Below, in pieces: positions 1 to 62,965 of a stretch of 64,000 nucleotides of DNA (the first letter of the stretch is position 1; each line of letters opens with the position of its first letter). The position numbers and the translations under genes are program-made. Source of the stretch: a virus (Duplodnaviria; Caudoviricetes); the IMG/VR virus record IMGVR_UViG_3300037067_026010, positions 64,001 through 128,000 of that record. One strand, given 5' to 3'. Below the pieces are notes generated by a model. It ran no database searches and had not been told where the DNA came from. It was given only the letters and a program-made list of their open reading frames with translations.

Positions 1-1243
1 GCGTACGTAGAAAGTCCACAAGAGCGAGTTGACTGGCGTGGACGACCCTGGATTCCTGCGGAACCGCCTCCGAGGACAGGCCGCCCTCGCCCAAGCGCGT
101 TACGCGCGTCTGGTGATCCAAGAGTTCGGCAGGATTGACCTCCTCGGGAGATTGGCCCAAGCCGCTCGTCAGCAGCGCGGACTGCAGCGCGCCATTGAAC
201 ATGCCGGGTATCAGATGTTCCAGATTGCCGCGTGCGCTCGCTTTCCATAAAAGCTTTTGCAGCGTGCCGCGATCGCGCTTGATGCGTTCCGCAAAAATAT
301 CCTCGGGGCCGAGGATGCGCTGGTAGGCCATGTCGTCGCGATCGTCGACCTCCGATTCGCGCCGATTCACGGCAATAAGCTTTTTAGTCACGGCCAGCAG
401 CGTGTCGGGGGTCACGCGCGTAAACGGCTGACCCAGCGTTCGCTGCGTCACGACGGGATCGATCTCCATGCGTTCGAATACTTCGCGCAGCGATTGCTCC
501 TGGGCTTCATAAGGAGCGTTCGGGTCGCTGTATTTGCACAGCCGTTTGTAGAGCGCCTGGATTTTCTTCGGGTCGTCTTTCTGCATATTCGCCGCGGTCA
601 GCTCGTTGCCCCAGGCGTCCCGTATAGCCTTTTCGGAAAGACCGAGCGTCTTCAAAAGCGGGAAAAGCGGCAGTTGCGCCTGGCCGATCTGCATCGTGAA
701 GATGCCGGTGGACGGCTCCAGCGAAATCCTGTGCCCCAGACCCTTGGCGACGTTGACGTGCGCTTCGATCTCGCCGTTGGCCTTTTCCCGCGTAAATACG
801 CCGGGCAACAGACGCAATTGATGCGCCATGCTGTATTCGGTGCCGTTGTGGATAAAGGTGCCGCGTTCCGTCAAGTGCGGCACCGTCCCCAGCGTTACTT
901 TGCGCCGGGCCGTTTCCTGCCCATTGGCGCCGGTCAGCACAAAAGTACCGCGCAACCGTCGGCCGGGCGAGCCGCGCCCAAGAATGGCCTGCTTTTGCGT
1001 GGCCAGCGAGAACTTATCCGGATCGGCATAGTGCACGTCGGTAAGCGCGAGGGTGTGGAGGGCGTTGCTGACGGGGGCCATATCGCGCGCGGCCTGCAGT
1101 GCGTTGTCGTAAAGCAGCTTTCGCGTGGCCGGCGCGTCGGCAAAGCGCCGCGAATCGGGTATTTCCGGCGTCGGCGGCAGAAACGGTTGTTCAGGAGCTG
1201 CCGGCGGCGTCATGGAATCAAGAATACTGTTGCTCATAGCCAT
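1..1243 (-). CDS. rpoB: Phage-encoded DNA-directed RNA polymerase beta subunit (RpoB-like), N-terminal ~414 aa; continues past the left edge
   Basis: Hand translation of an open minus frame from ATG 1243. [30 protein letters not shown] resembles RpoB [41 protein letters not shown] resembles [40 protein letters not shown]...[18 protein letters not shown] resembles [27 protein letters not shown]...EVRDVHPTHYGRVCPIET. Confidence 0.9.
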   Translation of the reverse strand, partial: [414 protein letters not shown]

Positions 1244-1245
1244 TG

Positions 1246-2286
1246 CTACGCCTGGGCGAATTCTTCGGGGGTAACGACATCTGCCACGGCCACGGGCGGC
1301 GTGGGCCTGCCAGCGCGCTCCATCCGTCGTTGCCGCAGGGCTTCTTCGAGGGCGTGGGCTTTGCTCCGCGATCGCGTCCATTGATAAGTGCCGATGCCGG
1401 ATCCGACGGCCAGCAGCCCCATCAGCGTCGCCATGGCACCTTCCGTGTAATTTGCCGCGGTGCTTACCGGTTGCGGCGCGAGTTGGCCGAGACTGGGCAC
1501 AGAGATAGGCGCACCGGTAAACGGATTCGTATAATCCGCGCATTTGCTCCAGGCGTCGGCCAGTTGCTGCATGGTGGCACCGATTCCCGCACTCGCGGTT
1601 TTGGCAGGCGGCAGCATAGCGGCATATTGCTCGTTTAAAGCCGCACGGTACTCCGATTTGCTTTGTTGCAGTTTCTTCGCCAGTTCGGCTTTGCGGCGTT
1701 TTGCCAGCAGCCAGTCCACCAGTTTCCAACCGCCGAACACCGATAGTCCGGCAGCCCCTAAACCGATAGGGATGTACGCAGCGCTAAACCTGGGATCGGG
1801 GGCCGGCATCCCGGCAACATCCGCCGTACCGGGTGCAACCGGTTCCAATTTTTTTGCCAGCCAGCCGCTGATACCGTCGTCCGCGGCCTGTTTGGCCAGA
1901 TCCGCAGCAAGAGTGTCGAGAGAGCCATACTTGTAGGCTGGTGCACGCTGCGCCTGTAAGGCCAGCCGCCGTAAATCCGAATCGGGCGTCAGTCCCAGCC
2001 GCGCTTTGTCCTCGACATCCTGGGCTTCTTGCTGCACTACTGGGATACGCAAAGTGCGCGGCAGCACGGGACTGGCGTCCTGCGGTGGTTTTGCCCCCGA
2101 TAAGACGCGCATAAGCTCCAATGCTCCCCGGCCGACCATGCCGGCTCCAAGGGCCGCGCCGGACGCGTTGAGAACGGCTTTGAGCGCCTGGACCTTGCGG
2201 GCTTGTTCCGCAGCGTCCTCCGCCAGTTTGCGAAGCTCACGCGGCCCCACCTGGGGCAAGCGGGAAAGTGTAGGTGTCGGCAGCAT
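1246..2286 (-). CDS. Putative virion/internal protein with Gly/Ala-rich hydrophobic segments and K-x-A/S motifs
   Basis: 346 aa ORF with a GGAG RBS. Motifs KYGS, KQAA, KTAS, KCAD. Hydrophobic helices are followed by basic runs. Confidence 0.6.
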   Translation of the reverse strand: MLPTPTLSRLPQVGPRELRKLAEDAAEQARKVQALKAVLNASGAALGAGMVGRGALELMRVLSGAKPPQDASPVLPRTLRIPVVQQEAQDVEDKARLGLTPDSDLRRLALQAQRAPAYKYGSLDTLAADLAKQAADDGISGWLAKKLEPVAPGTADVAGMPAPDPRFSAAYIPIGLGAAGLSVFGGWKLVDWLLAKRRKAELAKKLQQSKSEYRAALNEQYAAMLPPAKTASAGIGATMQQLADAWSKCADYTNPFTGAPISVPSLGQLAPQPVSTAANYTEGAMATLMGLLAVGSGIGTYQWTRSRSKAHALEEALRQRRMERAGRPTPPVAVADVVTPEEFAQA

Positions 2287-2659
2287 CGTGACTACTCCCT
2301 GGAGTTTTACCGTTTGGCTGTTCGCCGTAGATTTGTACCCACTCTAGCCAGACGGTCAGGCCGTTGTTCGTAGTGTCCCACTGGTCCACGCGTTTATGCT
2401 GCATGTACCAGCCGTTGACGATACGGTCCATGATCTCGTCAAAATTTTTCTTCTCGTCCTCCGCCCATAAATGAAAGAGCCGAGAATGATAATCCATTCG
2501 AACCGGCAGCGCTTCGAATTCATCTTGCCGCAGGTTCGGAGGGATACCTCCGCGAAACGGGTAGCCGTCGGCGGTGCCAGGCCAATGCAGTTTATCGCCA
2601 TGCCCGGTTTCCGGACCACCTTGGTCCTGAAAATATTTAAGCATCGACGTTTCCGGCAT
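2237..2659 (-). CDS. Hypothetical phage protein (140 aa, start MPETSM)
   Basis: GAGGTG RBS upstream of ATG 2659; globular-looking composition. Confidence 0.6.
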   Translation of the reverse strand: MPETSMLKYFQDQGGPETGHGDKLHWPGTADGYPFRGGIPPNLRQDEFEALPVRMDYHSRLFHLWAEDEKKNFDEIMDRIVNGWYMQHKRVDQWDTTNNGLTVWLEWVQIYGEQPNGKTPGSSHDAADTYTFPLAPGGAA

Positions 2660-2673
2660 ACGACACCTCGTGC

Positions 2674-2705
2674 AAAACAGGGCGCCCCGGGCGAACCCGG
2701 GGCGC
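2674..2705 (-). terminator. GC-rich hairpin, possible intrinsic terminator
   Basis: Perfect 10-bp stem GCGCCCCGGG-TTCG-CCCGGGGCGC followed on the minus strand by CCTGTTTT; intergenic. Confidence 0.45.
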
Positions 2706-2721
2706 ATCTTGTCTATCAGCT

Positions 2722-2943
2722 TCAGCTAAGGACCTTCAGATCCTTTTCGGTAAAGCGGTTTCCACCGCTGGCAGCACCGTCTTGTCGGACGATGGCGAAG
2801 GGCCCGACCGTGCATTCGGGCGAGTTGCCTTGCCAATCCGTATAAGACGTATTGTCCAGCGCCGTAACTACACCAGTTGTCTTACGAAACTGGCTGTTTT
2901 GGCTCATGACACGAACGCGTTGCGCGACACTGGGAAGCGACAT
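2722..2943 (-). CDS. Small hypothetical protein (73 aa)
   Basis: GGAGGT RBS; fits the gene spacing. Confidence 0.6.
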   Translation of the reverse strand: MSLPSVAQRVRVMSQNSQFRKTTGVVTALDNTSYTDWQGNSPECTVGPFAIVRQDGAASGGNRFTEKDLKVLS

Positions 2944-2961
2944 AATTAAACCTCCATGTTT

Positions 2962-3327
2962 TTAGCGTGGTGTGAGCATAAACTCCGGCCGTGGTTGCCG
3001 GAAACCTCTGCGGGCGCGTGCCTGCCGTACCCGTTCCGCTTGGAGCTGGTAAGCCTGCATGAGCTCGCGGCGCTTTTCGTCTTCAACATCTGCCTCGGGC
3101 TCGGTTGCCTTTGCCGCGAGGTACCCGCCGCCGGCGCCGACGCCGATGGCACCAAGCATGCCAGCCGTCGTAAGACCGTAAGCAGTATTCGCCAATTCTT
3201 TCCAAAAACCGCGTTTCTCCAATAGGTCCACGGCGGTCTTGGCACGTGCTACCGTCTCTTCGGCCGATAACAATTCGTCCGTGCAACGGGCTAAAAATCC
3301 GAACTGGAAAGCTTCGTGCGGAGTCAT
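2962..3327 (-). CDS. Putative virion protein with a Gly-rich hydrophobic helix
   Basis: 121 aa; contains KTA and EKRG motifs and GMLGAIGVGAGGGYL. Confidence 0.6.
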   Translation of the reverse strand: MTPHEAFQFGFLARCTDELLSAEETVARAKTAVDLLEKRGFWKELANTAYGLTTAGMLGAIGVGAGGGYLAAKATEPEADVEDEKRRELMQAYQLQAERVRQARARRGFRQPRPEFMLTPR

Positions 3328-3336
3328 GGCGTGTCC

Positions 3337-3885
3337 TTAAATATCCAAGAGGAGGCCTGTCCTATTTTTCTTGCGTGGCGGCCTATGCAGCCGTACGTGC
3401 GAGGCATTTGCCGCTACGGCATCCCGGACGGCGTCCGGTGTAGCCGTTCTGCCGGTAAATTTTCCGCGCGGCAGACTTGGCAACTGCGGGTAACCAGCTG
3501 CGTCACTGCCGGCGCTGAGCGACACCGTAGCGTTGCGTCGATGTTTTGTCCAGTACGCCTGGATTGCCGGGTCGCTCGGGTCGCCCATAAATCGCGCTTC
3601 TTTGATCGTTTCCGACAGGTCGTTCGCGGCCTTTTCGCAGAGGCGAGCTTCTTCGCGCATCCACGGACTGTCGTCCGCCGCAATTTGCTTTGCGAACTGG
3701 CCCAACGCCCGCACACGTTCGAGGGCCTCCGCAGGGGTAATAACGCAATATTCATGCTCTTGCTTATTCTCGCGTTCGTCGTACATCGCGAGGAGGCCCT
3801 CGCACGCAAAAAATACAAGCTGTTTGTGCCGGCGCAGCGGGCCTTGCCGCGCACCAATGGACCAAGCGGGTTTCTGGGTAATCAC
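3337..3885 (-). CDS. Hypothetical phage protein (182 aa)
   Basis: GTG start with a GGAG RBS, immediately downstream of one copy of the 16-bp palindrome. Confidence 0.6.
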   Translation of the reverse strand: MITQKPAWSIGARQGPLRRHKQLVFFACEGLLAMYDERENKQEHEYCVITPAEALERVRALGQFAKQIAADDSPWMREEARLCEKAANDLSETIKEARFMGDPSDPAIQAYWTKHRRNATVSLSAGSDAAGYPQLPSLPRGKFTGRTATPDAVRDAVAANASHVRLHRPPRKKNRTGLLLDI

Positions 3886-3900
3886 GATAGCGTCTCCACA

Positions 3901-3916
3901 CGGTAATTAAGCACCG
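3901..3916 (+). promoter_or_regulatory. 16-bp imperfect palindrome, copy 1 (CGGTAATTAAGCACCG)
   Basis: Exact copy of a motif seen 7 times in the window. Confidence 0.7.
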
Positions 3917-4022
3917 AACCGTATGCATCTTATCGCATTTCCGACTGCAGAGCCATACGAAAACGGCTGCCGCGGACGAAGCCGGGCAGCCCGTATTTTA
4001 ACGCGGCGCACAGGTCGTAAGC

Positions 4023-4445
4023 CTATACCGGTGGTGCCGGTGGTGCCGGAGGTTGCGGTTGCGGCGCCAAGTTTGGCGAAGGTGGTGGTAAATTTGGCGG
4101 CGGCGGGTAGCTGGCCACGGTGAATCCAACCCATTGTTGGTAGAGCCGCACGAAAACCGCAAGGGCCGCCATAATCGGCGGCAGCAGCTTCTGCAACGTG
4201 CCATGTGCCGCCAACCATTCCGCGTCAATATGGCGCAATGCCTCCCACGACATCCAAGCTACGGCCAGCCAGAAGGATTTCGAACGGAGCAAACCGCTCA
4301 GATGTCTTCGCAGCCGGCGTAACCGGCGCAAGGCAATGCGGTCGGCATCCGCAGTAGTTGATGCACGATATGTCGTTTTTGCCCGACGTCGCTTCCGTTT
4401 AAGCGGATGCGTGGGCGGTACGTCGTGTAGGTGTGGGTCTTCCAT
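4023..4445 (-). CDS. Holin-like two-TM membrane protein with a Pro-rich tail
   Basis: Basic N-terminus, SKSFWLAV helix, second helix LLPPIMAALAVFVRL. Confidence 0.4.
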   Translation of the reverse strand: MEDPHLHDVPPTHPLKRKRRRAKTTYRASTTADADRIALRRLRRLRRHLSGLLRSKSFWLAVAWMSWEALRHIDAEWLAAHGTLQKLLPPIMAALAVFVRLYQQWVGFTVASYPPPPNLPPPSPNLAPQPQPPAPPAPPV

Positions 4446-4454
4446 GACGGCACC

Positions 4455-4964
4455 TCATTTTCGGTTTTGCGGGGCCGGCTGTGCGTACACAGGCTCCCAT
4501 TTACACGCTCCCGCATTACAGGTTTTTCGATAGTATAAAATACGACCTTGCTGTGCGGACGGTACCTTCGCCGGAACGGTTTCCGGTACTACAGCTTTTG
4601 GCAGCACCACTGGCAATTCGCCCGGATCTTGCGAGGCTGCTGGAGGTAACGGCAAATCCGGCACCACGGCATCACCGACCTCTTGTCCGGAGTCCGGAGC
4701 TGGTTTTGGCGGCTGCGGTGCCGGCGTCGGGCGGTCTGTATGCTTTAACAGGATCAACCCCATATCTGTGGCTGCCATGTCAAGATACACAGGATCTACC
4801 ACGATTGGCCCAGGTGTCGGGTGTGGTGTCGGGCTCGGCGTAGGCTGTGGTGCAGGTTGTGGCGTTGGTCGCGGCGGCACAGGCCTCGGACGACGATGAC
4901 AGCCACTTGCCGCAGGCCAAGCCAGGGCAAGCATAACGACAATTATGAGACAGCGGTTATACAT
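4455..4964 (-). CDS. Secreted Pro-rich protein with a signal peptide
   Basis: MYNRCLIIVVMLALAWPAASGC signal-like start; PTP-rich linker. Confidence 0.55.
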   Translation of the reverse strand: MYNRCLIIVVMLALAWPAASGCHRRPRPVPPRPTPQPAPQPTPSPTPHPTPGPIVVDPVYLDMAATDMGLILLKHTDRPTPAPQPPKPAPDSGQEVGDAVVPDLPLPPAASQDPGELPVVLPKAVVPETVPAKVPSAQQGRILYYRKTCNAGACKWEPVYAQPAPQNRK

Positions 4965-4975
4965 GGCACACTCCC

Positions 4976-6643
4976 TTATCCGAACACCTTTTTGGGAAAT
5001 CCAAAAGTGGTAAGTTTCAGCAATGGCCAGCCTTCCACGAAACTGGTCGTGAAGCAATCCCCCTGTTGAAGGACAGGCTGAATGTATCGCGCCGCCGGCA
5101 TCCAGGCGCCACAAGCGGCATAGCTATCGGGTACGTCGAATGGCCCCTTGGGGCCGGAGACGTGGTTGCCGTGGCCTGTGTTGGCCACCCAGAAATATTG
5201 CGGTGCGGCCTTGCCGTCGTAGCGTACCCCGGTGATCGTCATGCAATGCGCACCGCTCTTGAAGCGATTCGCTACGCCGTTGGCATCCCGAGAAAGCCCC
5301 CAGGTGGTGTAGCCGCAATACTGAATGGCGTAACCGGATTGAACCAAGGCACCGGCGGCTTGAATATCGGTTACGGCCACGCGGTCGCGGCAGCGATGCT
5401 CGACCGCGTACTTTTCGAGGGCGTCCGGTACACCGTTGCCACCCTCGCCCCAGGACTTCGCCCTGCTGCCGCTATATCCTGCACTCAAATCCATTTCCGG
5501 ATAGGCAGAGTAATACAGGGTACCGTACTTCTCCCACGCCCGCATCGCGTCGATGCCAGCCATTCCCATGCCGTGGTAGCGATAGGAATTGAACAGCTCA
5601 CATTTACCAAAACCGTAAATACTTTCGCGGCAGATCAGTGCATCCGGTTTACGCACTTTGCCTGCCAGAGCAAATACGGCAAGGATAACATCCCCTAAAT
5701 GGCCACTCCCCCAAGAGACGCAGTTGGATACGGCAATACCGTTAGCAATAAAGGAATGATCTTCCTCAACCTCCAGGCAATACACCGAGATATTCCTGAC
5801 GGTGCTTCGGGTAATTCGCCGTATACTCCGAGCCAGCCCTTCGGCAGTTACGATCCGTTTACTCGGGCGTGTTGTCACCGCCGCTGCCTGCAATTCCGGG
5901 TAGACGGCAAGGGTAGATTCCCCGCCAAGATTAACCTCCCAGGCTGGTTTCCAGGTAGTGGCATGTGCATCTTGCCGTGTACGACACCGCAGTTTTGGCT
6001 GTAAGCGGCATTGTAACGCGAGGCGGCACACGCCACGGGCCAGTGACGGGCTAGCCAAGGTTTCTGAAACATCGTAAGATTTTTTATCCAAGTATCCGTG
6101 CGGGATTAAAACACGGTCGCCTACGCACAGTTCTCCGGAAGGCCGCCATGATAGTTCCTGCGTCGTCGTGCTTTGCCCTCCTGTTAGTTTGGCGGAAGGG
6201 GTTCCAGCATAAACGACGTACTTGTGGTCTGGCGTCGATGTGAGTCCACCGAAGTGCCCGGTTACCTCTGTTGTCACCAGTTCGCCAGAGTAAGGTTTCT
6301 TGATCGTTCGCAGAACACGGCGCACGTGATTATTATGCGTAATCACGTATTCGCCGACGCGAACTTCCTCAATAGCACGCTCTGTGCCATCCGCCATCAA
6401 TACACGAGTGCCTGCAACGTGGCAGTCTCCTGTACCCTGGAAGCCGTACTTCCAATTGGGCCAAAGCTCGAACAGCGCATTCCACAACACCGTGTCCTGG
6501 TGTTCGTCGGCGCCAATGATATACGGCGCGGCTTCCATGATGTTGCGCCGCGGTATAGCCGCCGATTCCGGCGTCAAATGGTAGCCGTAATTGCGTTGAT
6601 TTTCCGGTAGATTATTCAAACTGTCTAAATATTCAGTCGACAT
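4976..6643 (-). CDS. Papain-like (C1-type) cysteine peptidase interrupted by an intein
   Basis: Start MSTEY with a GGAGG RBS. The spliced product reads QGTGD|CVSWG (oxyanion Gln plus catalytic Cys), then GAHCMTITG (His) and YFWVANT (Asn). Confidence 0.8.
   Translation of the reverse strand: MSTEYLDSLNNLPENQRNYGYHLTPESAAIPRRNIMEAAPYIIGADEHQDTVLWNALFELWPNWKYGFQGTGDCHVAGTRVLMADGTERAIEEVRVGEYVITHNNHVRRVLRTIKKPYSGELVTTEVTGHFGGLTSTPDHKYVVYAGTPSAKLTGGQSTTTQELSWRPSGELCVGDRVLIPHGYLDKKSYDVSETLASPSLARGVCRLALQCRLQPKLRCRTRQDAHATTWKPAWEVNLGGESTLAVYPELQAAAVTTRPSKRIVTAEGLARSIRRITRSTVRNISVYCLEVEEDHSFIANGIAVSNCVSWGSGHLGDVILAVFALAGKVRKPDALICRESIYGFGKCELFNSYRYHGMGMAGIDAMRAWEKYGTLYYSAYPEMDLSAGYSGSRAKSWGEGGNGVPDALEKYAVEHRCRDRVAVTDIQAAGALVQSGYAIQYCGYTTWGLSRDANGVANRFKSGAHCMTITGVRYDGKAAPQYFWVANTGHGNHVSGPKGPFDVPDSYAACGAWMPAARYIQPVLQQGDCFTTSFVEGWPLLKLTTFGFPKKVFG
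5723..6424 (-). mobile_element. Intein (234 aa) with a remnant of a LAGLIDADG endonuclease
   Basis: Block A CHVAGTRVLMADG, block B TSTPDHKY, block F VYCLEVEEDHSFIANGI, terminal SN followed by +1 Cys. SPSLARGVCRLALQC resembles a late homing-endonuclease block. Confidence 0.92.
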
Positions 6644-6645
6644 AC

Positions 6646-7095
6646 TTAACCTCCTGCCGCCCAGGCAAATGCCTGATAGCATTCGATGACTTTGTTGCGC
6701 CGCTCCGGCGTAATCGGCCCGGGGTCGTCGCCGGCCCACTTCAACATGGCACTGTTCATGGCGTCGCTTAATCCCGGCACGGGCTTAAATTCAGCGCCAA
6801 AACGCAGATTGGCGACATTGTCGTTGTAAGCGCTTAACGTACCGGCGTCTTTGATCAAATTGCCGGCGTCGCGCTGAATCATCGCCGCCGTCGCAAGGCA
6901 GTAATTGGCAAATTCGATGCGTTGCGGGTGTTCCGCCATATCCCGCTTGATTCCGGCGACGAGCGTTTGCAGCTCCGCCACGGGTTCGGAGACGACGGAC
7001 GCCGTCGATGATTCTACGATATAAGGCGCTGCAAACGGCGCGCCGACGCCGACGACGATTAGGATTGCTAAAACCCAATTTAACAATGGTTTCAT
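6646..7095 (-). CDS. Membrane-anchored or secreted hypothetical protein
   Basis: N-terminal hydrophobic helix followed by a helical domain. Confidence 0.65.
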   Translation of the reverse strand: MKPLLNWVLAILIVVGVGAPFAAPYIVESSTASVVSEPVAELQTLVAGIKRDMAEHPQRIEFANYCLATAAMIQRDAGNLIKDAGTLSAYNDNVANLRFGAEFKPVPGLSDAMNSAMLKWAGDDPGPITPERRNKVIECYQAFAWAAGG

Positions 7096-10572: not shown

Positions 10573-11313
10573 CTACGGGCTGCCGGTTGTGGCCGCACAT
10601 ATTTCTGTTGTGTTCGCATGGGTGGTAAAAGTGTTAATAGAGGGGGATAACCAGTCCGGAGCGCGTCTTGCCGATAATAATTCCGGATCTATGTTACGAC
10701 ACTGTTTGTGTAAGCGGCTTACCGCTGCTCGGATTAACGCATTCACGTAATGCCGCGAGCATTGCAATTCTTGCGTTATCTCGCCACGCGACATGCCGGC
10801 CAGCCGCATTTCGAGAGCCTGGCGCTGCCGAAGCGACAGCCTGGTAACCGCAATGCGGAAAGCGTGCCGACTTTCCTGCTGCAAAAGACGGCGTATCGGC
10901 GGATCCTCGTACCAGCCCTGTACCGAGGTTGCATAAATTTGCCGGGGCGGCCGGCGGCGACTGTTTGGCCTGCGGACATACTGTTCCGTGCCTTGCTGCT
11001 TCCTGGCGTTTTGAATGGCCTGGCGAATCCAATAGGCTGCATAATTTGCAAAACGGTGTCCCCGACCCTCCTGCCAGCGTTCGATAGCCACTATCAGCCC
11101 CAAGATGCCGTCTTGAAAAAGATCTCGTAGAAGTTCACGAGGTTGTCGCAGGCCGCGGGCTATGTGCCAGACAAGACGCTGATTGCACAAAATAAGTTGC
11201 TCTCTAGCCTTGCCACAACCGTTGTGGGCGGCCCGTAGATAGGCTAATTCTTCGTCCGCCGTCAAAGGCGTTGCCGTAGTCGCATTATCGAAGACGCACT
11301 TCCCTGCCGTCAT
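10573..11313 (-). CDS. Sigma-70 family RNA polymerase sigma factor (regions 1.2, 2 and 4)
   Basis: PLTADEE, AREQLILCNQRLVWHIAR, DLFQDGILGLIVAIERW, RFANYAAYWIRQAI, C-terminal HTH LSLRQRQAL...GMSRGEITQEL. ATGA overlap with the upstream gene. Confidence 0.9.
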   Translation of the reverse strand: MTAGKCVFDNATTATPLTADEELAYLRAAHNGCGKAREQLILCNQRLVWHIARGLRQPRELLRDLFQDGILGLIVAIERWQEGRGHRFANYAAYWIRQAIQNARKQQGTEQYVRRPNSRRRPPRQIYATSVQGWYEDPPIRRLLQQESRHAFRIAVTRLSLRQRQALEMRLAGMSRGEITQELQCSRHYVNALIRAAVSRLHKQCRNIDPELLSARRAPDWLSPSINTFTTHANTTEICAATTGSP

Positions 11314-12284
11314 GGTTTTCGCGGTAATTGCGGTAAAAGTTGCACAGGTTCGTGTTGCAACAGGCGATCGACCGGGTGCTGGACCATAGCGGACCCTCCG
11401 GCCAGATATGCCTGCGTCTGCCGTATCGAGCGTTGCGGATCCATCGCATTCTGCATCCGGTCCCACGTTTTGGCTTCGGCGATCGCCCTGTCGCCACGCT
11501 GTTTTATCGTAGCCGCGTGACGTTGTAAAGCGCCGAGTAGTCCTTCACCGGCGTTATAAACCGGTTTGCGTCCGCGCAGCAGCTCCGCCCCATGTCCGCG
11601 CGCTGCCTCGGCGTAGAAACTCTGCGCCGCTTTTACCGGTGCGGGCGGATTCAAAAAATCTTCAACGTCGCCAACGGTTTTCAGCCTCGTTGCACTGTCC
11701 GGATCAATATCGAGATCGATCCAATGCTCCGCCAGTTCCGACGGATCCGCGCCGTAATCTTTCGCGTAGTCAGCTTCGCGATAGACCTGATCCGCCGGCA
11801 CATTAAATCGCTGCATCAGCAGTCGCTGCAACGCCTTATTTTGCAATGGCGTCTGCTCCAGCGTCACCGCCGGCTTATTCGATACCAAATCGGATACGGC
11901 CCCGAGGGCGATGTCGTCCGCCGCGCCGGTCGCCAAGGCCATCGGCGATTTCAATAGGCCGAGTACGCTTGTTTTAGTCAGCGTTTTGGAGATATCCGCC
12001 GGTACATGTGTCTTGGGCAGATGAAAGCGATAGCCGGTCGGTCGATGGGTAATGCCATAGAACCGCTGCAGCTCCTCGTCGATGTACCAGTTTTCCGGAT
12101 TGGAAAGCATCAACTTGCGCAGCTGCGCGCTTTTGGCGGCATAAGCACGGTTGTCGGAGAGCTGCTGAATAAACTGTAGCTGCTCAAGAAGTGGGTGCCC
12201 TGCATCGGGCGGCAGTGCGGCCGTTTTCACAAAAGCCGCCGCGCACGCTTCTACTGCGGCACATTCCATAATGGTGCATGCCAT
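11310..12284 (-). CDS. K-x-A-punctuated protein containing a degenerate acyl-carrier-protein-like domain
   Basis: KTAA, KTS and KAA motifs. The internal segment LQRLLMQRFNVPADQVYREADYAKDYGADPSEL...IDPDSATRLKTVGDVEDFL follows the ACP pattern. Confidence 0.6.
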   Translation of the reverse strand: MACTIMECAAVEACAAAFVKTAALPPDAGHPLLEQLQFIQQLSDNRAYAAKSAQLRKLMLSNPENWYIDEELQRFYGITHRPTGYRFHLPKTHVPADISKTLTKTSVLGLLKSPMALATGAADDIALGAVSDLVSNKPAVTLEQTPLQNKALQRLLMQRFNVPADQVYREADYAKDYGADPSELAEHWIDLDIDPDSATRLKTVGDVEDFLNPPAPVKAAQSFYAEAARGHGAELLRGRKPVYNAGEGLLGALQRHAATIKQRGDRAIAEAKTWDRMQNAMDPQRSIRQTQAYLAGGSAMVQHPVDRLLQHEPVQLLPQLPRKP

Positions 12285-21464: not shown

Positions 21465-22187
21465 CTAATGTAGTGAAGTTTCTGCCGACGTACAGAGGAA
21501 TCCGTCCACATCGAACCACGGTTTCGTAACGCGGCCGTGCCAGTTGCGGCCGATCTCGCCCAGATGCACGGTTCGCCGCTCTGGCAATATTGCGTCGCGG
21601 CAGCGTTCCGTAAAAAGCAATTTGCGATCGGCTTCCGGCCATTGTACATCCAATCCGCGTACATAATCCGCGGGCATTGACACCGCGGGGAAACGCATCG
21701 GATGCGCCTTCTGATTCCAGAGTTGGAAGTGTCGCGTTAGGTATCGCAGATCACGCTTTGACGGCCATTCAAGTCGCGGGCGCAGTTCTTGTGCTCTATA
21801 CTGCCGCCACGCCTCGGGAGAGCTGACAATGCGCCGTAGCGCCCCGTATAGCTTTGTCGCACAGAGCGCGCGAGGGGCTAGAACCTCCTTGGCGCTCGCC
21901 GGCAGCAGAATATCGGCATCCAACGCCAATATCCAGTCCAATCTGCCGCACCGATCCGCCAGCAACTTGTGCAATCCAGCCTGCAGCCCGACGGCCTTAT
22001 TGAACGGGGTTCCCCAATCTGCCAGCGTAAAACACGCAACATTGTAGCGCCGGCAAACCGCTCGTGTGTCTTCGTCACCCGGCGTGGTTATAATCAGCGG
22101 CTCGTCGCTTACCGCCAGGACGCACGGCAGCGTCATTAAAAGAAAATCCGCGTAATTAACACAAGGTATCAGCGCCCTCAGCACCAT
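21465..22187 (-). CDS. GT-A fold glycosyltransferase
   Basis: IPCVNYADFL, FNKAVGLQAG and the DxD motif in WILALDADILLP. Confidence 0.8.
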   Translation of the reverse strand: MVLRALIPCVNYADFLLMTLPCVLAVSDEPLIITTPGDEDTRAVCRRYNVACFTLADWGTPFNKAVGLQAGLHKLLADRCGRLDWILALDADILLPASAKEVLAPRALCATKLYGALRRIVSSPEAWRQYRAQELRPRLEWPSKRDLRYLTRHFQLWNQKAHPMRFPAVSMPADYVRGLDVQWPEADRKLLFTERCRDAILPERRTVHLGEIGRNWHGRVTKPWFDVDGFLCTSAETSLH

Positions 22188-22215
22188 GGTTACAGCTCGA
22201 ATCCGGTTGAAGTTG

Positions 22216-23193
22216 TTAGCGTTTTGGTGCGTGCCGCCGCAGATACCGCTCGAACGCCAGATCTCGGACAGCACCTACGTCTATGCGCTGCATCGGATGT
22301 TGCACAGCCCGTGGTTTTACAAGTTTAGACGCAGGCGGCGGTACCACAGCCGGGCGCTTGAAGACTTTGGCCGGTTGTCCTCGAGTATGCGCCGGGGCAG
22401 GTGCCTGCGCAGGCGGCACTCTTGGTGTAACGTACAGGCCAGGCACAGCCGCTGGGCAGGGCAGATACTGCCCATTCCACGGCTGCTGCGGAGTATAGAC
22501 CCAGGGACCTGTCGAGGCGCAAAATACGCCTTTAATACGTTTACTGTTCAGCAGCCTGCCGGACGGGCCGAAGTCGTGATTGGCTCTGGGATGCTCCTGG
22601 TGCAACCCCAGAATTGCAGAATACTCCGGCTGCGACTTGGCGCCGTGAATTAGACAATCGGAAAACCACCAATCTTCGCACCCGACCGTAACGAAGTCTG
22701 GGTCGTAACCGCCTACCCTGTAAACATCTTCTCGCGAACTCGAACCCAGGAAGAACAGCGGATTGTTTACAGGATGCGTATTCCACGAAGGCGTATAGCG
22801 CGGAGCAATTTGTCCGGTAGCTACGTCATAACCGTACACGGTGCCAATCAGAAATCTGCTGGGCTTCAATCCAGCCGTAAGCCGCTCTATCGTATCCTGT
22901 GCAACATGCAACACGTCATCAGATTGCTGAATAACAACATCGCCAAGTGCTGCCTGTAGCGCCACGTTGCGTGCACGGCCCGGTACATGCGCCGCCAGTC
23001 TCGGCAGCTGTATGACCCGCACTTCCGGATACTTTCCGAGGATCTCCTGTGTATTGTCATTTGCCCCGTCATCGACGACAATCACCTCCCAAGCGAATGG
23101 CGGCTGTTGGCAGAATATGCTCGCCAGCGTTCGGTCCAACAGCCCGGCATGGTCACGCGTGGTAATGCAGACGGAACAACGCACGATAGCCAC
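22216..23193 (-). CDS. Family 2 glycosyltransferase (paralogue A)
   Basis: SVCITTRD, EVIVVDDG, ARNVAL, QQSDDVLH, GGYDPDF, CEDWWF. Confidence 0.9.
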   Translation of the reverse strand: MAIVRCSVCITTRDHAGLLDRTLASIFCQQPPFAWEVIVVDDGANDNTQEILGKYPEVRVIQLPRLAAHVPGRARNVALQAALGDVVIQQSDDVLHVAQDTIERLTAGLKPSRFLIGTVYGYDVATGQIAPRYTPSWNTHPVNNPLFFLGSSSREDVYRVGGYDPDFVTVGCEDWWFSDCLIHGAKSQPEYSAILGLHQEHPRANHDFGPSGRLLNSKRIKGVFCASTGPWVYTPQQPWNGQYLPCPAAVPGLYVTPRVPPAQAPAPAHTRGQPAKVFKRPAVVPPPASKLVKPRAVQHPMQRIDVGAVRDLAFERYLRRHAPKR

Positions 23194-42551: not shown

Positions 42552-43424
42552 TTACTCAGCAAACGAGTCCAGCAGCTGGATCAGGTCGCTGATGGTGGCA
42601 TCCACCGATGCTGCGATCGCTTCACGGTCTTTTTTCGCACAACCTTTGTAAAGTCGATCGAATTCCTGCGCGGGCATATCCAGGTATTCTCCTACGCGCG
42701 CCCTGATTTGCTTCATAAAACCCAACAAGCGCACGACATGGTCCTTGGGAGATTGTATGGCACCCACCCTTACTGAGGCGGTTCGCGACGCGCCCATGAT
42801 GAATCGGCGTGCCTCCGACATGCCCATTTTGGCGGCGGTAATGCGCTTTGCCAGCTCCAGTTGCATTTCCTGCGGCAGCGGCACGAGCAATTGCGCCAGG
42901 GAGAACGTCAGCCTACCGCTGCCGCCGGCGCGCTCCCGCTTCTTGTCGCACGGCGCCACCAGCATCGGCCGGATTTCCGGATGCAATCTGCAGAGGTTCG
43001 CGTGCTGCATGACGTAGCACGTCGATTTGCCGAATATCTCGGCGATCTCTTTGACGGTTTTGCCGTGCGCCGAAAGCCGGTTTACCGCTGCGGCGATCTC
43101 CAGGCAGTTGTGTTTCTGCGCGTGAAAATTCGCCATGACGGCGACGGCAAAGCGATCCTCGGGCTCGGGTCGCACGATAACTTCGATAGGTATATTGGCA
43201 TGCAGACAGGCCTGCAGTCTGCGCTCGCCGTCGATCAGCTCGTAGTCGTAGCCCTCCAAGTCGCACGTAGTGACCTCGATCGGCTGACGCTGGCCGAAGG
43301 TCTTGATGCTTCGGGCCAGCTGCGCAATGTTGCGAAAATCGCTTCGCGGTTGCCCGACAAATGGTTTGACGCGCGCAGGGTCTACTGTCGCCAGGCGCGA
43401 TTGCGCCTGCTTTATCTTTTCCAT
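42552..43424 (-). CDS. parB: ParB/KorB-family CTPase with an HTH domain
   Basis: GQPR, LARSIKTFGQRQPI, YELIDGERRLQA, and HTH KTVKEIAEIFGKSTCYVMQ. Confidence 0.88.
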   Translation of the reverse strand: MEKIKQAQSRLATVDPARVKPFVGQPRSDFRNIAQLARSIKTFGQRQPIEVTTCDLEGYDYELIDGERRLQACLHANIPIEVIVRPEPEDRFAVAVMANFHAQKHNCLEIAAAVNRLSAHGKTVKEIAEIFGKSTCYVMQHANLCRLHPEIRPMLVAPCDKKRERAGGSGRLTFSLAQLLVPLPQEMQLELAKRITAAKMGMSEARRFIMGASRTASVRVGAIQSPKDHVVRLLGFMKQIRARVGEYLDMPAQEFDRLYKGCAKKDREAIAASVDATISDLIQLLDSFAE

Positions 43425-43523
43425 CGGCTTCCTTCCTCGCATAAGTCCGCAGTACGCCGAGTTTTCCATACTCACGTTCGTAGGTGGCATTTCGCGCCCT
43501 TTGTACCTGTTCCTGGTAATTCG

Positions 43524-51009: not shown

Positions 51010-51615
51010 CCCAATACCTGGTTTTCGCATTTTCTTGTTTTTCTTCCGGGCTGCCCGTTTTGCCTCGATAAGTTCGGAGCACTTCGCCGTCAACGCCTCC
51101 GCGCAGGCTTGCTGTTGCTCGTCGTAGTCCTCCGCGTCCTGTTCGATGCCCAAGTGGTGGCATGCCGCGCGCGCTAATTCCTCGCCGAGACACTCCACGA
51201 CGTCGCCCACGGGGAGGCTGCTGTCGAACATTATGACCGCCCGCTTGCTTCGGTCGCTAGGGTATGTAGCATACCCTACTGCGCCGGCCTCCTCTTGCGC
51301 CAAATCCGGCTCCACCCACCAAACGAGCGGACAGGGCAAATTCGGCCACAACGCCATGTAAGCCCGCGCCAGCATGTCGAACGGATCGATGCTGAAGAAC
51401 CTGCAGCCCGTGTTGGTCCGCGCGACGCGCTTTGCAACGCCGGCAGTTCGGCACTCTTTCGTGAAGCTCGGGATGATCACCACGCTGAGGCATATTCCGG
51501 CAACCAGCATCCGGTGTAGATGCGGCGCCTCCGCCGGCAGTCCGAGGGCCAGCACGAGCCCCGCTATAAGCAGAAAGACGCGGCACGCCAGGAGCACGTA
51601 GACCTTAAACATCAT
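50992..51615 (-). CDS. Two-TM protein with a degenerate zincin-like segment; C-terminus extended by the IS end
   Basis: Contains LGEELARAACH. The pre-insertion end would read MRKP-stop, with the TGA now at 47879-47881. Confidence 0.6.
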   Translation of the reverse strand: MMFKVYVLLACRVFLLIAGLVLALGLPAEAPHLHRMLVAGICLSVVIIPSFTKECRTAGVAKRVARTNTGCRFFSIDPFDMLARAYMALWPNLPCPLVWWVEPDLAQEEAGAVGYATYPSDRSKRAVIMFDSSLPVGDVVECLGEELARAACHHLGIEQDAEDYDEQQQACAEALTAKCSELIEAKRAARKKNKKMRKPGIGSIMCC

Positions 51616-52391
51616 TTTTTCGTCCTTTCCGGCGTTTAACGCCTTTCGCTTGTTTCCCGGGCCGGCCTTCGGCGTTCAACATCACGACTTTGGCGAAATC
51701 GGCTTTCATCGCCTCGTGCCCTCGGTGCAATATTTGCGCGAGGAGCATGTCCTGGTTGTCGCCGCCGGCCAGCGCGATACGCGTTTGCTGCAGCATAGAT
51801 AATAGATCAGCGGCTTTCTTTATTCCGCTTTGACTCATAGTACACGTCCTTTCTTATCACGACGGCTAAGTCCTATACTTATTATGCCAGTATTTTGCCG
51901 CTTTTTTACTTCACGATCGAAACCGCCAAGATACGGCCGTTTTTGAACTGCACGATCCTCTTGCGGGTAATGCCGCGCTCCACGAGGCTGGTGTAATGGA
52001 TACTCAGCTCCTTCGCGTACTCCTGCAGCAGCTTTGCCACCGTCAGGTCCCTGGCGAGTTTCGCCGCTTCGCGCCGCGACTCGAAAAATTGCACAGGAAA
52101 GTCGTCTCCCTCGCAACACGCTACGACGAGATAACCGTTCATGCTTGCTCCTTCTTGCGTTGTTCGTTTTTTGCAATCTTCCAACGTCGCTTCAGCCTCC
52201 CGGGCGATAGGGTCACAAAGCGTGTCCCAAAATGCCCCGATGCCCTGCGCTGCCTGGGGCCACCCGTCGCTATAAGGCAAACACGCCTCCTGCACAAGCT
52301 GCAAAAGCCTCTGATGGACAATTTCCAAATTTTTTCGCATTGCCTGCATAAGCCCATGCCGCCGTGCCTGGGCGCGCCGTGCGTTTAGCAT
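51605..52391 (-). other. Two hypothetical genes (51605-51838 and 51906-52391)
   Basis: ORF track plus RBS-like sequences. Confidence 0.5.
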
Positions 52392-55300
52392 AAATAACTC
52401 CTCTTTTCATGCCAGCTCCTGGGCTTGCTCACGAATCGCTCGCGCGATAGGTGTAATGATGCGGCCACTGGACCGAATTATGGTTTGCCCCAAGATCCAC
52501 GAGTCCGCAAAAGGCTCTACAAACCCCGCCTGGCACTCGGAGGCCAGACGGCTCGTGCTGCTGCCTAATTGATCGATAATGTCTTTTTCTTGCATAGACG
52601 CTCCTTTATCTCGGCTACGGCTTGCCCAGCAATTACCTCGCGGACCACATCATGCAGGTCGTTCACCGTGAATTCCACTGCAAGGGCGCGCGATGCAACC
52701 TCTGCAGCTACCTGGCACTGGCCCAGGTTGTGCAGCGATGTCAGCAACCTCCTTCGCAAAACCGTGTGAACGGCGATCTGCTCGTACAAGGTAGTTGCCG
52801 GATTGGCTTTATCGGCGAAATTCACCGTACGGTTAGTCCTGCGCGTCATGGTTTATCTCCCTAACCGCTGCAAACGCCTGCTCTACGACGGCAGTGCGCA
52901 ATCCATGTTGGTTACGACCGACTAATTCAAGGATCTGTGTCCGTACTGCGGGATTTATAGGTTCCGCGGCATCGAATATATGTATCCAGACCGTTTCGTT
53001 GACCTGGTCTTCGTGGGTATCCAGCTGGCCCGCTACGCTCTCCATGTAGCTCATGGTCTATGCGCCCTCTTCTCTACGGTGTGCCTGGCCTGCTCGCGGA
53101 GGGCTCGCCATATGTCTTCTCGCGCCTGGGTAACCGCTGCATCCTGCAGTACACGGAGACGCACGTCGGTGCTCACGCATCGCCCGATCCCGGCCCTCAG
53201 CGTGTTATCGAGGTACGTTACCAGCATATTCTCAGCCGCCAACAGGGGCCGGGCCACTACGTCCTGTTTATTCAACATGCTTACCTCCCCTCTATGGTGG
53301 CGATAAGGGCAGCGCGCAGTGCCGTGAGTACGTCGAAGCCTGGTACTACTACCTCGTCCCACGCGCGCGCCCGCATCCTAGGCGATACGTGCCGATACGT
53401 AGCCTCATTCAGGCCGACCCTAAGCGGCGACACAAACCGCCATTGCCCCGGCACTTGTACCTGCTCCGCAATAGCGCGCACTGTTCGATCATGTTGGGTA
53501 CTTGGAGGGATTTTCATGGTTTGTATTTCGGAAAGTTTTCTGTTAGAGATCATCCTCATTTTGTACGACGAGCCCGCTTTGTTGGCGTGCTTGCTCGCGA
53601 ATTACTGTCCTGATCTCCCGCAGGGCAGCAGCTGGAATCAGCAATGCATCGGCTGCTGCGAGGCAACCACGCTTGGTCATTGCGTTCCCCATCTTCGCAC
53701 CGTACTCCTCGACAGCCTTCAGGATTTGTACGGAGATTTCATGGTACGTCATAGGCGCTCCTCATCTCGACATTGGTCGTACGCAGCTTGCCCTACCGGC
53801 AGCAAAACGTTACTGATGGTGTCTTCTATCACCGCTGCTATGCCGGCACGTTCCCTGCCCGGAGGCAACGCGGCTTGGCAGGCGTGTCGCAGCTCCTGGT
53901 GCAACTCGTCGGCAAGCATACGCCACAGCACGGCATTACGCTGTGTCATAGCCGCTCCTTTGCGCGTTTGCGCAGATGTGGTGCCAGCTGCTCACGGAGC
54001 TGTTCAAGTATAAGTGCCCCGGCCGTATTGCTACGGCGAACTATTCTACCTAATTGCGCGTGCACCTCGCCGCTAACGCTTGCGCACAGCATCCGACTTA
54101 TTTCCTCTACCGCAGGCGCAACCCGGCGTAACTGGTCAATTATGTCATCACGCGTCATGGCTTCTCTCCCTGACCGCTGCAATCACCTGCTCTATAATAA
54201 CAATTCGCAATCCACGTTGGTTACGACCGACTAATCCAAGGATCTGTGTCCGTACTTGTGCCGTAAGCTGCGCGCGGAGACCTGCCTCGCAAACAATCCA
54301 CATGCTGTCGCGCATGCGCTTATACGGCGTATCGCGTGTCTGCTCGCTAATATCAGGCAAGATCATTGCCGCTCCTTTATCTCGACTATCGCCTGCGCAC
54401 GGATGAGGTCTGTTATACGCTGGCACACGACCTGCCGCACAATTCCCGCACGGCGTATAACCGTGGGTAGATTGCGCGACACATGAGCGTCAAACACGTC
54501 CATGGCTTTTACAACTTCCCAACGAAAACTGAAGATTTTCTGCGTCATAAAATCTATATGCCGCGCGACAGCGTCGTCCTGATGCACGGCTGCATTTCTT
54601 TTGATACGCATGTTTAGTTCACCCTTTCTACAGGAAAGCGTGGGGCGCAGGCCCGGTATGCCTCGCACAAGCTTTTAGTCTTGAACTGCGACCACTTGTA
54701 GGGAAACGTCGGCGCCCGCGATACTGCCGCTGACGACCGCGTCAAGCAACCGCGCCGCCGCCTTCACATTGTTGATCGGGCCCTCGGATTCCGGACAAGC
54801 AATCTCGATCACGACTTTCATCGTGTTCTTGGGCTTGTAAGGAGCAGAAAATTCGCGTTCGATGCCATCCTGCAGTTCTGCTGCCTTCGCGCGCACGCTT
54901 TTGATGCCTTGTTGCGCTTGTTTTTTGGTATCGTACGGCCCGTAGATGTCCTTGCCGTATGCTATGCTCGTTACATTGAAATACCAAGTCATGCTGTGTA
55001 CCTTTTTTTAATAATTTTCAATTATGTCCCTGTACCCGCTGCCGCAGCGGCCTGCTCGCGGAGGCCACGCCGCACTTCTTCTTGGGCCTGGGCAATCGTA
55101 GTACCTCGGAACTCCGAGGGCGCATGGCCCCAACGCTCCCGCACAGCCCGCCTGACCGCGAACCTGACCTCGGCATTAGTACGTTGCAGGGGCGCGGCCA
55201 CCACCCGTCGTGCGCCGCCCGAAGCTGCTGTGATCAATTGCTGCACAATACCCCTACGGTTTGTCATGGCGCGACTCCTTCCGGATCTGCTGCAACACGC

Positions 55301-56126
55301 CGGTGCGCAGCGGCGCAAGTCCTATGGATACCTCGTAGACAATGTCTGACTCAATGTCGTCGGCGAGGTTGCCGTCGATGCACGCGTCTTGCACCTTCAC
55401 CATCGCGTCAAACAATTTGTCCATAATTGAACACAGTCGGTCGTCTAGCTGCTTTCCGACATTAACGCGTGCCATGGCACAACTCCTTTCTGTGCGAAAG
55501 CCGCTCGATTCTGCCCTGAGGGCCCATCCGGCGGTTCGCCGTACAGCGGCTGTTAATCGCCCGCACCCGCTGCCGCCCGGGGCAACTCGTGGGTTTGCCG
55601 CAGAATTTGCGGCCACAGTTGCCGTAGGACTGGCTGCTGTGCTTGTTCCCAGACCTGTTCTTGGATTTGCCTGCAGACTTGTCCACGGACTTGCTCCTGG
55701 ACTCGCTGCCGAATGTGCCATTCGAACATCTTGGGAACTTGCGATAGCTGTGAACTTTGTATCTTCATAAGTCACCCTCCGCATCAAACTTGGCCTGCTC
55801 CTCCATGCGGAGTTGCCAAATTTGCGACTCGATCTGCTGACGACACTGTTGATGCACTGGCGGCACGGTTTGCTGCCGAACTTGCTGCTCGATTGGTCGC
55901 CGGATTTGCCGATGGATCTTGTCTATGCCCGCCGGCCAGATCTGTTCTAGGCCCTGCAACAACCCTTGTATTTGCCGCCGAACTCGCCACCCAACCTGTT
56001 CGTCCGCTTGCCGACGAATCTGCTGCAAACTCGAGTTTCTTAGCTTCATATATCGCCCTCCCTAGTAAGACTAGTTTGCCGCCGGTAGACCTCCGCGAAT
56101 ATAATACTTACGAACTTTATGCCCGG

Positions 56127-56142
56127 CGGTGCTTAATTACCG
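56127..56142 (-). promoter_or_regulatory. 16-bp palindrome, copy 6
   Basis: Exact reverse complement, CGGTGCTTAATTACCG. Confidence 0.7.
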
Positions 56143-62100: not shown

Positions 62101-62965
62101 CCACTGACATGGCGTAGCACCTGGTCATAGATACAGCTAAAGATATGCCGACCTAGACTGTCCGGCCACCGCGGCATGATATTGTTATTCATTAGCGCTG
62201 TACCCTCTGGCCTGTGGCGGTTGCTTGTGCTTCAATTGCCTGGCTTGCAGCCTGTTTAATTAGCCAAACGGCGCCATGATATCGGCTAAGGCCTCCACCG
62301 CCGTGAAGGATACCGACCATTTGCCGCGGAATGGTATCGATGTCAGCAAGGTAGACTCGGTCTTGCATCGGTCCGAGGCCGGCGGCCAATACCTCGCTCT
62401 GGCGCATAAACGCTCGTACTACAGCCGCCTGGCTCTTGTGATTCATAGCAATTCGCCCTCCGGGAATATATGAAATACACCGCCTGCCCTGGTCGAGTGT
62501 ACCGTTTCGTGTTTACCTACGGTCTCATCGACAGCCCGGCAGAGCAGCCGTTGCACGGCACCTTCCCTCGCAAGGCCTGTACCGTGCAGGATGCCGTCCG
62601 ACACCGACGGATTATACAGGTTATTGTTAAACATCGGCAACAAGACGCGCGCCGCCACGTCCATGGTGCACCGCTGCCACATCTGTTGCCATTCCGCTAG
62701 TACTTTACGACTCATGCTGACCCTCCACAACTTCCTTTGCTTGATCCACCACGCAACGGAGTATGGCCGATGGTACTTCCTCCGCGGTGATTGCACGCTC
62801 CGCCCTGCCGCGCGTAGGTAGGTCTACCCTGAGGCGGACCGCGCCGTCCCAGTGCAGGAACAACACGGATTTCATGGGTGCCCAGATTTTATTGTGAACG
62901 CAGTAAGCAAGATGCTCCGCCATATTACCGCCCTTTCATATAACGTGCTTTCGATACCGCAGCCG

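Follow-up and report, generated by a model that had tools for sequence, protein, structure and literature searches.

The 64,000-nucleotide stretch of viral DNA analysed here (hereafter the window) comprises bases 64001-128000 of the tailed-phage record IMGVR_UViG_3300037067_026010 in IMG/VR, a virus record of 210,569 bp that is rated complete. At its left edge, the window cuts into a minus-strand gene for a bacterial-type, phage-encoded multisubunit RNA polymerase (RNAP), in which a complete beta subunit is fused head-to-tail to the N-terminal part of beta' (beta'-N). The remaining part of beta' (beta'-C) is encoded by a separate gene further to the left, and three inteins (inteins 1 and 2 in the large chain, intein 3 in the small one) interrupt the two chains. 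Taken together, it is likely that these genes specify a two-chain, intein-bearing phage polymerase that is directed by a sigma factor and probably packaged for early transcription. The enzyme is an intein-laden member of the Arash-type two-chain phage polymerase family, which has already been seen and is not new to databases.

A beta subunit joined to the front half of beta'

A preliminary description of the window had pointed out an open minus-strand frame running from the ATG at position 1243 to the window edge, with three conserved RpoB blocks in the right order. Both observations were borne out. The open reading frame (ORF) listing gave a minus frame at window 2..1729 that is open at its 3' side and runs off the edge, and phmmer alignment to solved bacterial beta subunits recovered the three blocks in order. 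The first block pairs with the bacterial TERGTFVINGAER..RSPGVY, and the rifampicin (Rif)/fork block ends in VDFLRTPE where the bacterial counterpart ends in CPIETPE. The ATG at 1243 sits 2 nt past the TAG (1248-1246) of an upstream ORF of 346 amino acids (aa), and in relatives the polymerase start lies equally tight behind a gene of 290-370 aa. The IMG gene call uses an alternative ATG two codons downstream. Because the same tight junction recurs in relatives, we take ATG 1243, or the ATG two codons later, as the start of the gene.

The 414 residues encoded within the window gave weak Pfam matches on their own (Rpb2_2, E=1e-3; Rpb2_3, E=0.07; both below the cut-off) and matched PHROG 24349 at 1.4e-12. 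The preliminary description had proposed leftward extension, searches with Rpb2 profiles and a search for a beta' partner or fusion, and all of these were productive. The frame continues for 5.9 kb to the left of the window and yields a product of 2375 aa. The whole protein matched Rpb2_6 at E=3.7e-49 (168 bits against a cut-off of 23.4) and passed the cut-off for Rpb2_3 (22.3 bits against 21), with Rpb2_2 still below it. It also matched Rpb1_2 (4e-17), LAGLIDADG_2, LAGLIDADG_3 and Intein_splicing. Both a fusion and a partner were found: beta'-N follows beta in the same chain, and beta'-C is separate.

In searches against solved structures, the beta part matched bacterial beta at 7e-67, well outside what chance would give, and beta'-N matched bacterial beta' at 2e-37; archaeal, eukaryotic and phiKZ-type chains matched far more weakly (1e-15 to 1e-17). 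The phmmer alignment to solved bacterial beta was collinear over residues 53-246 and 296-928, and the identity of the beta part to bacterial beta was about 30%. The large chain was mapped by alignment with the intein-free protein gp206 of phage Arash and by motif positions (Table 1). After computed removal of inteins 1 and 2, it measures 1476 aa, and its intein-free relatives measure 1441-1506 aa. The catalytic barrel motif VGDKLAGRHGNKMVVS aligns with the bacterial GDKMAGRHGNKGV, that is, with the GDK..GRHGNKG lysine motif. Within residues 784-799, this phage is alone in having GRHGNKMVVS; the sequence in relatives and in bacteria is G[ND]KG[VI][VI]S, so that the phage shows a Gly-to-Met change (GNKM) beside the second catalytic lysine of beta.

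The small chain, beta'-C, matched Rpb1_5 at 1.4e-13 and a solved bacterial beta' at 1.5e-24. Its alignment to bacterial beta' begins near E. coli residue 578, and it also aligns to Arash gp216. Its trigger loop is split by intein 3, reading TQAQI/SSKHTGG (the slash marks an intein junction here and below) against RTFHTGG in Thermus. Computed splicing leaves 625 aa, which lies within the family range of 613-657 aa. Rpb2_6 and Rpb1_2 each occur at just one locus in the genome, which amounts to one polymerase set.

The resulting core is compact, with about 1000 aa of beta and about 1100 aa of beta'. No cysteine was found in the stretch corresponding to the beta' zinc ribbon (residues 1307-1460), and the family consensus has none there either. 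At the second beta' zinc site, cysteines are likewise missing throughout the family, which reads VRSP.VGGP.DGGVYA.D.G where Arash beta'-C keeps C..C..C. Furthermore, no Pfam match to alpha (PF01000) or omega (PF01192) was obtained in the whole genome, and the control genomes were all positive.

The preliminary description had called the enzyme streamlined and had placed its Rif region about 150 residues earlier than in E. coli. The offset was confirmed against E. coli, in which residue 421 aligns with residue 278 of the phage protein, so that the Rif region comes about 145 residues sooner. It vanished against Thermus beta: residue 115 aligns with Thermus residue 112, in register, and residues 115-859 are collinear with Thermus 112-911. 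The early Rif region is therefore explained by the absence of insertions of the E. coli lineage and involves no phage-specific trimming. The word streamlined remains apt for the compact core, the missing zinc-site cysteines and the undetected alpha and omega; the early Rif region, reflecting only absent E. coli insertions, lends it nothing.

Separation from bacteria and the Arash-type family

The position of the beta part was examined in a tree of 57 rows and 1063 columns (quick IQ-TREE search, LG+G4 model, Shimodaira-Hasegawa-like approximate likelihood-ratio support), with intein 1 removed from the query row. One branch, with support of 100, set all 37 bacterial RpoB sequences, from 12 phyla, apart from the rest; another, also with support of 100, did the same for the 18 fused-type phage proteins, including those of Arash and Vibrio phage D69. 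Yersinia phage YerA41 and Cobetia phage Carin-5 formed a third long branch. The tree has no outgroup, came from a quick search and gave long-branch and compositional-bias warnings, all of which count against a detailed interpretation. Because of this, only the separation from the sampled bacteria is trusted.

These data bear on whether the gene might be an ordinary bacterial rpoB that reached the record with host DNA or through mis-binning of the contig. Bacterial beta subunits are indeed the top matches among solved structures, and several matching "phage" database records really are bacterial rpoB-rpoC with ribosomal protein genes. The contig, in contrast, is a 210-kb virus record rated complete. 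No ribosomal gene occurs within 16 kb of the polymerase gene, whose neighbours are phage ORFans, and its fused and split arrangement differs from that of bacterial rpoB and rpoC. Among the 599 tblastn-confirmed hits listed from bacterial genomes, the best identity was 39% over the most conserved 160 aa. Together with the fully supported branch that sets all 37 bacterial sequences apart, these observations leave a bacterial origin with practically no credence. No phage-type copy was seen in bacterial genomes among the best 80 of at least 599 loci, which are ordinary bacterial rpoB at no more than 39% identity. The preliminary description was right in calling the protein a divergent phage-encoded RNAP beta subunit outside a ribosomal-protein operon: it comes from a virus record, shares about 30% identity with bacterial beta and sits in a separate clade. 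It does not nest within a bacterial phylum beside rpoC and ribosomal genes.

Relatives of the large chain are numerous. A word-indexed protein search returned at least 120 clusters at 50-63% identity. Nearly all of the listed clusters are 1441-1506 aa long and combine Rpb2_6 and Rpb1_2 in one protein, and many of them come from contigs of 190-230 kb. A scan of IMG/VR confirmed 142 loci, of which 80 were kept for gene-order counts; the clusters and loci stem mostly from contigs of about 200 kb. The order in these 80 is upstream ORF, beta-beta'-N, p240 (55 loci), p86 (35), beta'-C (68) and p791 (64), where p240, p86 and p791 denote the genes around beta'-C. Among isolates, the fused layout was found only in Arash and in Vibrio phages D69, D148 and D181, at about 30% identity. 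Our literature search found no paper on the fused-and-split layout, although such a description may still exist.

In Arash, gp206 (1525 aa) and gp216 (606 aa) show the same arrangement, with beta fused to beta'-N and a separate beta'-C, and the Vibrio phages share the fused layout (VPHD69_0261 and 0264). BLASTP aligned the large chain to gp206 with 33% identity over 919 aa and 28% over 514 aa, and the small chain to gp216 with about 24%. Arash-type chains without inteins measure about 1450-1530 aa and about 610-660 aa, and the spliced chains here fit these sizes. The polymerase genes of Arash and D69 have no inteins, whereas those of the present phage have three. Moreover, nine genes on both strands lie between the two chains in Arash, whereas the conserved p240 and p86 pair lies between them here. 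In print, Arash gp206 is described as "subunit beta", and the fusion is not discussed (PMC10585845).

Other tailed phages carry polymerases that are arranged differently. Those of the mReC clade encode deeply branching, bacterial-like beta and beta' that group together outside Bacteria (Weinheimer and Aylward 2020, PMC7481178), and the phage beta described here likewise falls outside all sampled bacteria. The available rows of the mReC supplement list a separate beta of about 900-1000 aa and beta' of about 1000-1360 aa, and the text mentions no fusion, sigma, virion or intein (PMC7481178). The T4-type capsid family PF07068, which was used for mReC, had no match in the present genome, and the controls were equally silent. 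In YerA41, beta'-N, beta'-C and beta are all separate; in Carin-5, beta' and beta are separate; and in Rhizobium phage RHph_Y65, beta' is whole. The fused clade is set apart from YerA41 and Carin-5 in our tree, which was built without bona fide mReC sequences.

Phage multisubunit polymerases have been studied almost solely in the phiKZ/AR9 type, which is sigma-independent and highly fragmented and is the subject of the reviews of jumbo-phage RNAPs (PMC7824862, PMC13282480). In that type, two paralogous sets occur, beta and beta' are each divided into several chains, no sigma is encoded, and the virion carries one of the two enzymes (PMC7824862). The present enzyme resembles it in being a phage two-barrel polymerase that has no alpha and whose beta' is divided at about the same place. 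It differs in that one set is present, a whole beta is fused to beta'-N, and sigma-like genes occur; similarity to the solved AR9/phiKZ-type chain 7s00_C was marginal (1.3e-15 over about 70 aa). The fused family is much nearer to the bacterial enzyme and joins beta to beta'; it appears to use a sigma-like factor, to dispense with alpha and omega and, in its one studied isolate, to travel in the virion. It is abundant in metagenomes and biochemically untouched, and could offer a natural minimal bacterial-type core for assembly and structure work.

Fusions of rpoB and rpoC are also present in Helicobacter and Wolbachia, where beta runs at its C-terminus straight into the N-terminus of beta', two ends that are adjacent in the enzyme. 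These bacterial fusions contain a whole beta', have stayed within the ribosomal/rpoBC operon, and function together with alpha and omega. In the phage, by contrast, the break in beta' follows the catalytic barrel, and neither alpha nor omega was detected.

Some matches in the searches need to be set apart from the family. Phage-database records such as CAKLQH020000005.1 and OR844998.1 contain ordinary bacterial rplKAJL-rpoBC operons and are host DNA. They comprise contigs of Acinetobacter phage MD-2021a and unverified Staphylococcus, Listeria, Enterococcus and Salmonella "phage" contigs. The "moraphage" lineage (PMC12619734) was considered as the identity of the present phage and was ruled out, as no RNAP occurs in that lineage.

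Three inteins at catalytic sites

Three LAGLIDADG inteins, whose limits were set by alignment with intein-free Arash gp206 and gp216, interrupt the polymerase: one in the GG..G/SKR motif of beta, one directly after DFDGD, and one inside the trigger loop. Intein 1 has C931, TRNH in block B, N1306 and S1307 at +1, and matched LAGLIDADG_2 at 5e-16. Intein 3 has C337, TVEH in block B, N722 and S723 at +1, and matched Hint and LAGLIDADG_3. Judged by these residues, both are canonical class 1 LAGLIDADG inteins.

Intein 2 departs from this pattern. It has S1766 at position 1, N2288 as its terminal residue and Thr at +1. Its block B reads TDDD and lacks His, and its penultimate residue is Ser instead of His. 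Class 1 inteins such as PI-SceI, PI-PfuI and the Tli and Pho VMA inteins have TxxH in block B, where the intein 2 family has TDDDP. A full-library search with intein 2 returned 609 representatives at E<=1e-3, 213 of these at E<=1e-30. Among the matches listed, the insert lies directly after D[FY]DGD in 95 of 150 relatives; at position 1 of these 95, Cys, Ser or Thr occurs in 6 and Gln in 44. Because the block-B His and the penultimate His are missing and few relatives have a nucleophile at position 1, the splicing of intein 2 is uncertain, and these features weigh against an enzyme that depends on three splicing events.

Conservation at the C-terminal junction argues in the other direction. 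In an alignment of 44 members, the junction DG[VI][VI]LSN/T..HVP is essentially invariant, block F reads ETGYDLTVPG, and block B reads SGRQI.TDDDPRAVYG, again without His. The strong conservation of the LSN/T junction in these members argues for selection on splicing. In the present phage, Ser at position 1, the terminal Asn and Thr at +1 would allow ordinary class 1 chemistry. The intein 2 family resembles the class 2 Mja KlbA intein (PMC7765530) in its penultimate Ser and in mostly lacking an N-terminal nucleophile; KlbA has Cys at +1, whereas the intein 2 family has Thr. A class 3 mechanism was ruled out by Asp at position 4 of block F.

The N-terminal limit of intein 2 was set with a structural model. 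The model, built on the 44-member alignment, had a predicted local distance difference test score (pLDDT) of 86.6 and a predicted template modelling score of 0.86. It superposed on the TliVMA intein with Z 20.0 (344 aligned residues, root-mean-square deviation 6.0), on 2cw7 with Z 19.6, and on PI-PfuI with Z 15.7. Residue 13-14 of the model falls on residue 1 of the solved inteins, and residue 536 on the last. We place the N-boundary at S1766 because residue 1 of the solved inteins superposes there; N2288 likewise occupies the position of their last residue. The family has an extra helical insert of 35-45 aa between the first and second Hint strands. C1810 had been considered as the boundary, as Pfam is blind to the N-terminal Hint blocks and SQFSHV resembles TMQFHV. 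With this choice, 44 additional residues would stay in the enzyme after splicing; it was ruled out by the superposition on S1766.

All three inteins would have to be spliced out before the enzyme could work. It might be argued that the gene is decaying or inactive, with inteins at three catalytic sites, one of them without standard splicing residues, blocking maturation. The TDDD block B and penultimate Ser of intein 2 could be read in this way, as could the GNKM seen in this phage alone against G[ND]KG in relatives and bacteria. Nevertheless, the frames are intact across 2375 and 1011 codons, catalytic motifs are kept in all exteins, and the spliced lengths fit the family. Inteins 1 and 3 have the canonical Cys1, TxxH, Asn and Ser at +1, and intein 2 combines its strongly conserved LSN/T junction with a usable nucleophile, Ser, at residue 1. 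We therefore regard inactivation as very improbable.

A more far-reaching proposal is that a packaged, minimal, zinc-free and alpha-less two-chain enzyme with a sigma-like factor forms a holoenzyme activated through three splicing events. In this proposal, the DFDGD intein would represent a large undescribed mechanistic group, marked by TDDDP in place of TxxH, an invariant LSN/T junction and the lack of a conserved N-terminal nucleophile, that splices in a class-2-like manner with Thr at +1, or that splices conditionally and gates the polymerase. We rate this combination as rather doubtful. The presence of three inteins at catalytic positions, including one from a large atypical family, is useful for work on intein mechanism and leaves the overall picture of the polymerase unchanged.

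Further inteins were observed in relatives, where they occupy four other positions in the large chain, namely those following residues 396, 415 (RTPE/S), 788 (GDKL/SGR) and 828 (ISR/TNP) in the numbering of the relative P0025. They are of a different type (CYD..TE...GN, then S or T) and occur in loci L011 and L012 and in proteins P0004, P0020, P0034, P0091 and P0106. Several beta'-C homologues are 739-1310 aa long. In this phage family, the polymerase genes form a hot spot for inteins.

Sigma-like genes, probable virion packaging and neighbouring genes

Two sigma-like genes were identified (Table 1). The sigma-70-family gene in the window, which probably starts at an internal ATG and encodes about 245 aa, had no counterpart in five related complete genomes, which weighs against a general role in directing the polymerase. 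On this distribution, it is an accessory gene. The second gene, outside the window, was found in all five related complete genomes (E=1e-31 to 1e-62), and its product matches Arash gp10 (E=2.7e-13) and a D69 ORF (E=1e-9). The gene with the clear Sigma70_r2 match is thus the non-conserved one, and the divergent sigma-like gene is the conserved one.

These components can be combined into a working model. Chain 1 contains both double-psi barrels, that of beta with GDK..GRHGNK and that of beta' with the Mg-binding DFDGD. Its beta part also has the lobes, the fork/Rif region and, at the C-terminus, the clamp piece, and its beta' part also has the clamp coiled-coil. Chain 2 brings in the trigger loop and the bridge helix along with the C-terminal beta' module. 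The covalent link between beta and beta' plausibly stands in for alpha-driven assembly. Promoters would most likely be recognized by the family-conserved sigma-70-like factor, with one further sigma gene available in this phage. By homology with Arash, the packaged holoenzyme would be injected and would transcribe early genes independently of the host polymerase, a possible route for phages of about 200 kb to escape host transcription control.

The case for packaging comes from Arash. In mass spectrometry of purified Arash virions, gp206 was the most detected protein, with 3516 spectra; gp216 gave 1210 spectra, and the sigma factor gp10 gave 467 with 100% coverage (PMC10585845). The Arash authors suggest a role in early transcription, yet they allow for carry-over of abundant enzymes from the infection phase (PMC10585845). 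Packaging in the present phage is an extrapolation, because Arash is only about 31-33% identical. Both points weaken the case, and we lean modestly towards a virion-packaged polymerase. The preliminary description had also suggested packaging, on the ground that the gene is co-oriented with what it termed K-x-A proteins. The suggestion is plausible through the Arash virion orthologues; the co-orientation carries no weight, because nearly every gene in the block is on the minus strand.

The same two-chain polymerase could instead be absent from the virion and made after infection for middle and late genes, with early genes read by the host polymerase, redirected by phage sigmas or not. One polymerase set is present here, whereas phiKZ-type phages keep separate virion and non-virion enzymes (PMC7824862), and phage sigma-70-type factors could in principle also serve the host core. 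The caution of the Arash authors that highly expressed enzymes may contaminate virion preparations (PMC10585845) points the same way. It is set against the finding that the Arash beta fusion is the single most-detected protein of purified particles, accompanied by sigma at full coverage (PMC10585845). In addition, the polymerase genes belong to a long run of genes on one strand, within which p791 is weakly similar (E=1e-4) to the Arash structural protein gp218. On balance, synthesis of the polymerase only after infection seems the less likely alternative.

Table 1. Coordinates of the polymerase genes, their parts and other features of the record. Window positions are those of the 64,000-nucleotide stretch.
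Feature	Record	Window	Residues	Strand	Remarks
beta::beta'-N RNA polymerase gene	58119-65243	-5881..1243		(-)	2375 aa
Polymerase codons 1-414		1..1243	1-414	(-)	17% of gene; beta lobe/protrusion and fork/Rif region
beta up to KGGAAG			1-930		
Intein 1	61326-62453		931-1306		CFTAKQ...LVAN, then S1307
beta C-terminus			1307 to ~1375		SKRLGLLESGALLSYG...ASGIHPV
beta' N-terminus			from ~1376		no linker; TQIMALTSRDVEQL..., GGLFD...
Clamp coiled-coil, then SADFDGD			to 1765		SADFDGD at 1759-1765
Intein 2	58380-59948		1766-2288		
C-extein			2289-2375		TMQFHVP... to end
p240	57374-58096			(-)	directly downstream of large chain
p86	57100-57360			(-)	between p240 and beta'-C
beta'-C	54006-57041			(-)	1011 aa; Rpb1_5, Hint, LAGLIDADG_3
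Intein 3 of beta'-C	54876-56033		337-722		
p791	51517-53892			(-)	downstream of beta'-C
Upstream ORF		1246..2286		(-)	346 aa; ends 2 nt before polymerase start codon
Intein-bearing ORF		4976-6739		(-)	587 aa; Hom_end_hint 6e-7, Intein_splicing 6e-6, Hint_2 9e-6
sigma-70-family factor		10573..11466		(-)	Sigma70_r2 8e-15, r4_2 6e-4, phrog_351 1.6e-25
ParB-like protein		42552-43490		(-)	ParB_N 2e-8, HTH_ParB 2e-6
Conserved sigma-like protein	21687-22550	outside window			287 aa; Sigma70_r3 2e-7

Among the genes around the small chain, p240 and p86 were considered as equivalents of alpha or omega; neither had a Pfam or PHROG match, and the results speak neither for nor against their taking part in the enzyme. 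The p240 product is Pro/Ala-rich and of low complexity, with a single conserved helix, QQKLKPEQMMQMLDYRLYNMQQQL. The model of p86 (pLDDT 82) shows a small five-strand sheet and a helix, and a Foldseek search found no match to it in the Protein Data Bank at E<=0.001. On the other side of the polymerase gene, the upstream 346-aa ORF is 43% identical to its closest relative only, and weak similarity to it was seen in 12 loci.

Two further genes in the window were noted. An intein-bearing ORF of 587 aa lies 3.7 kb upstream of the polymerase and matches phrog_36001, a family of unknown function. The ParB-like protein surfaced through a weak match to a helix-turn-helix resembling that of sigma region 4.

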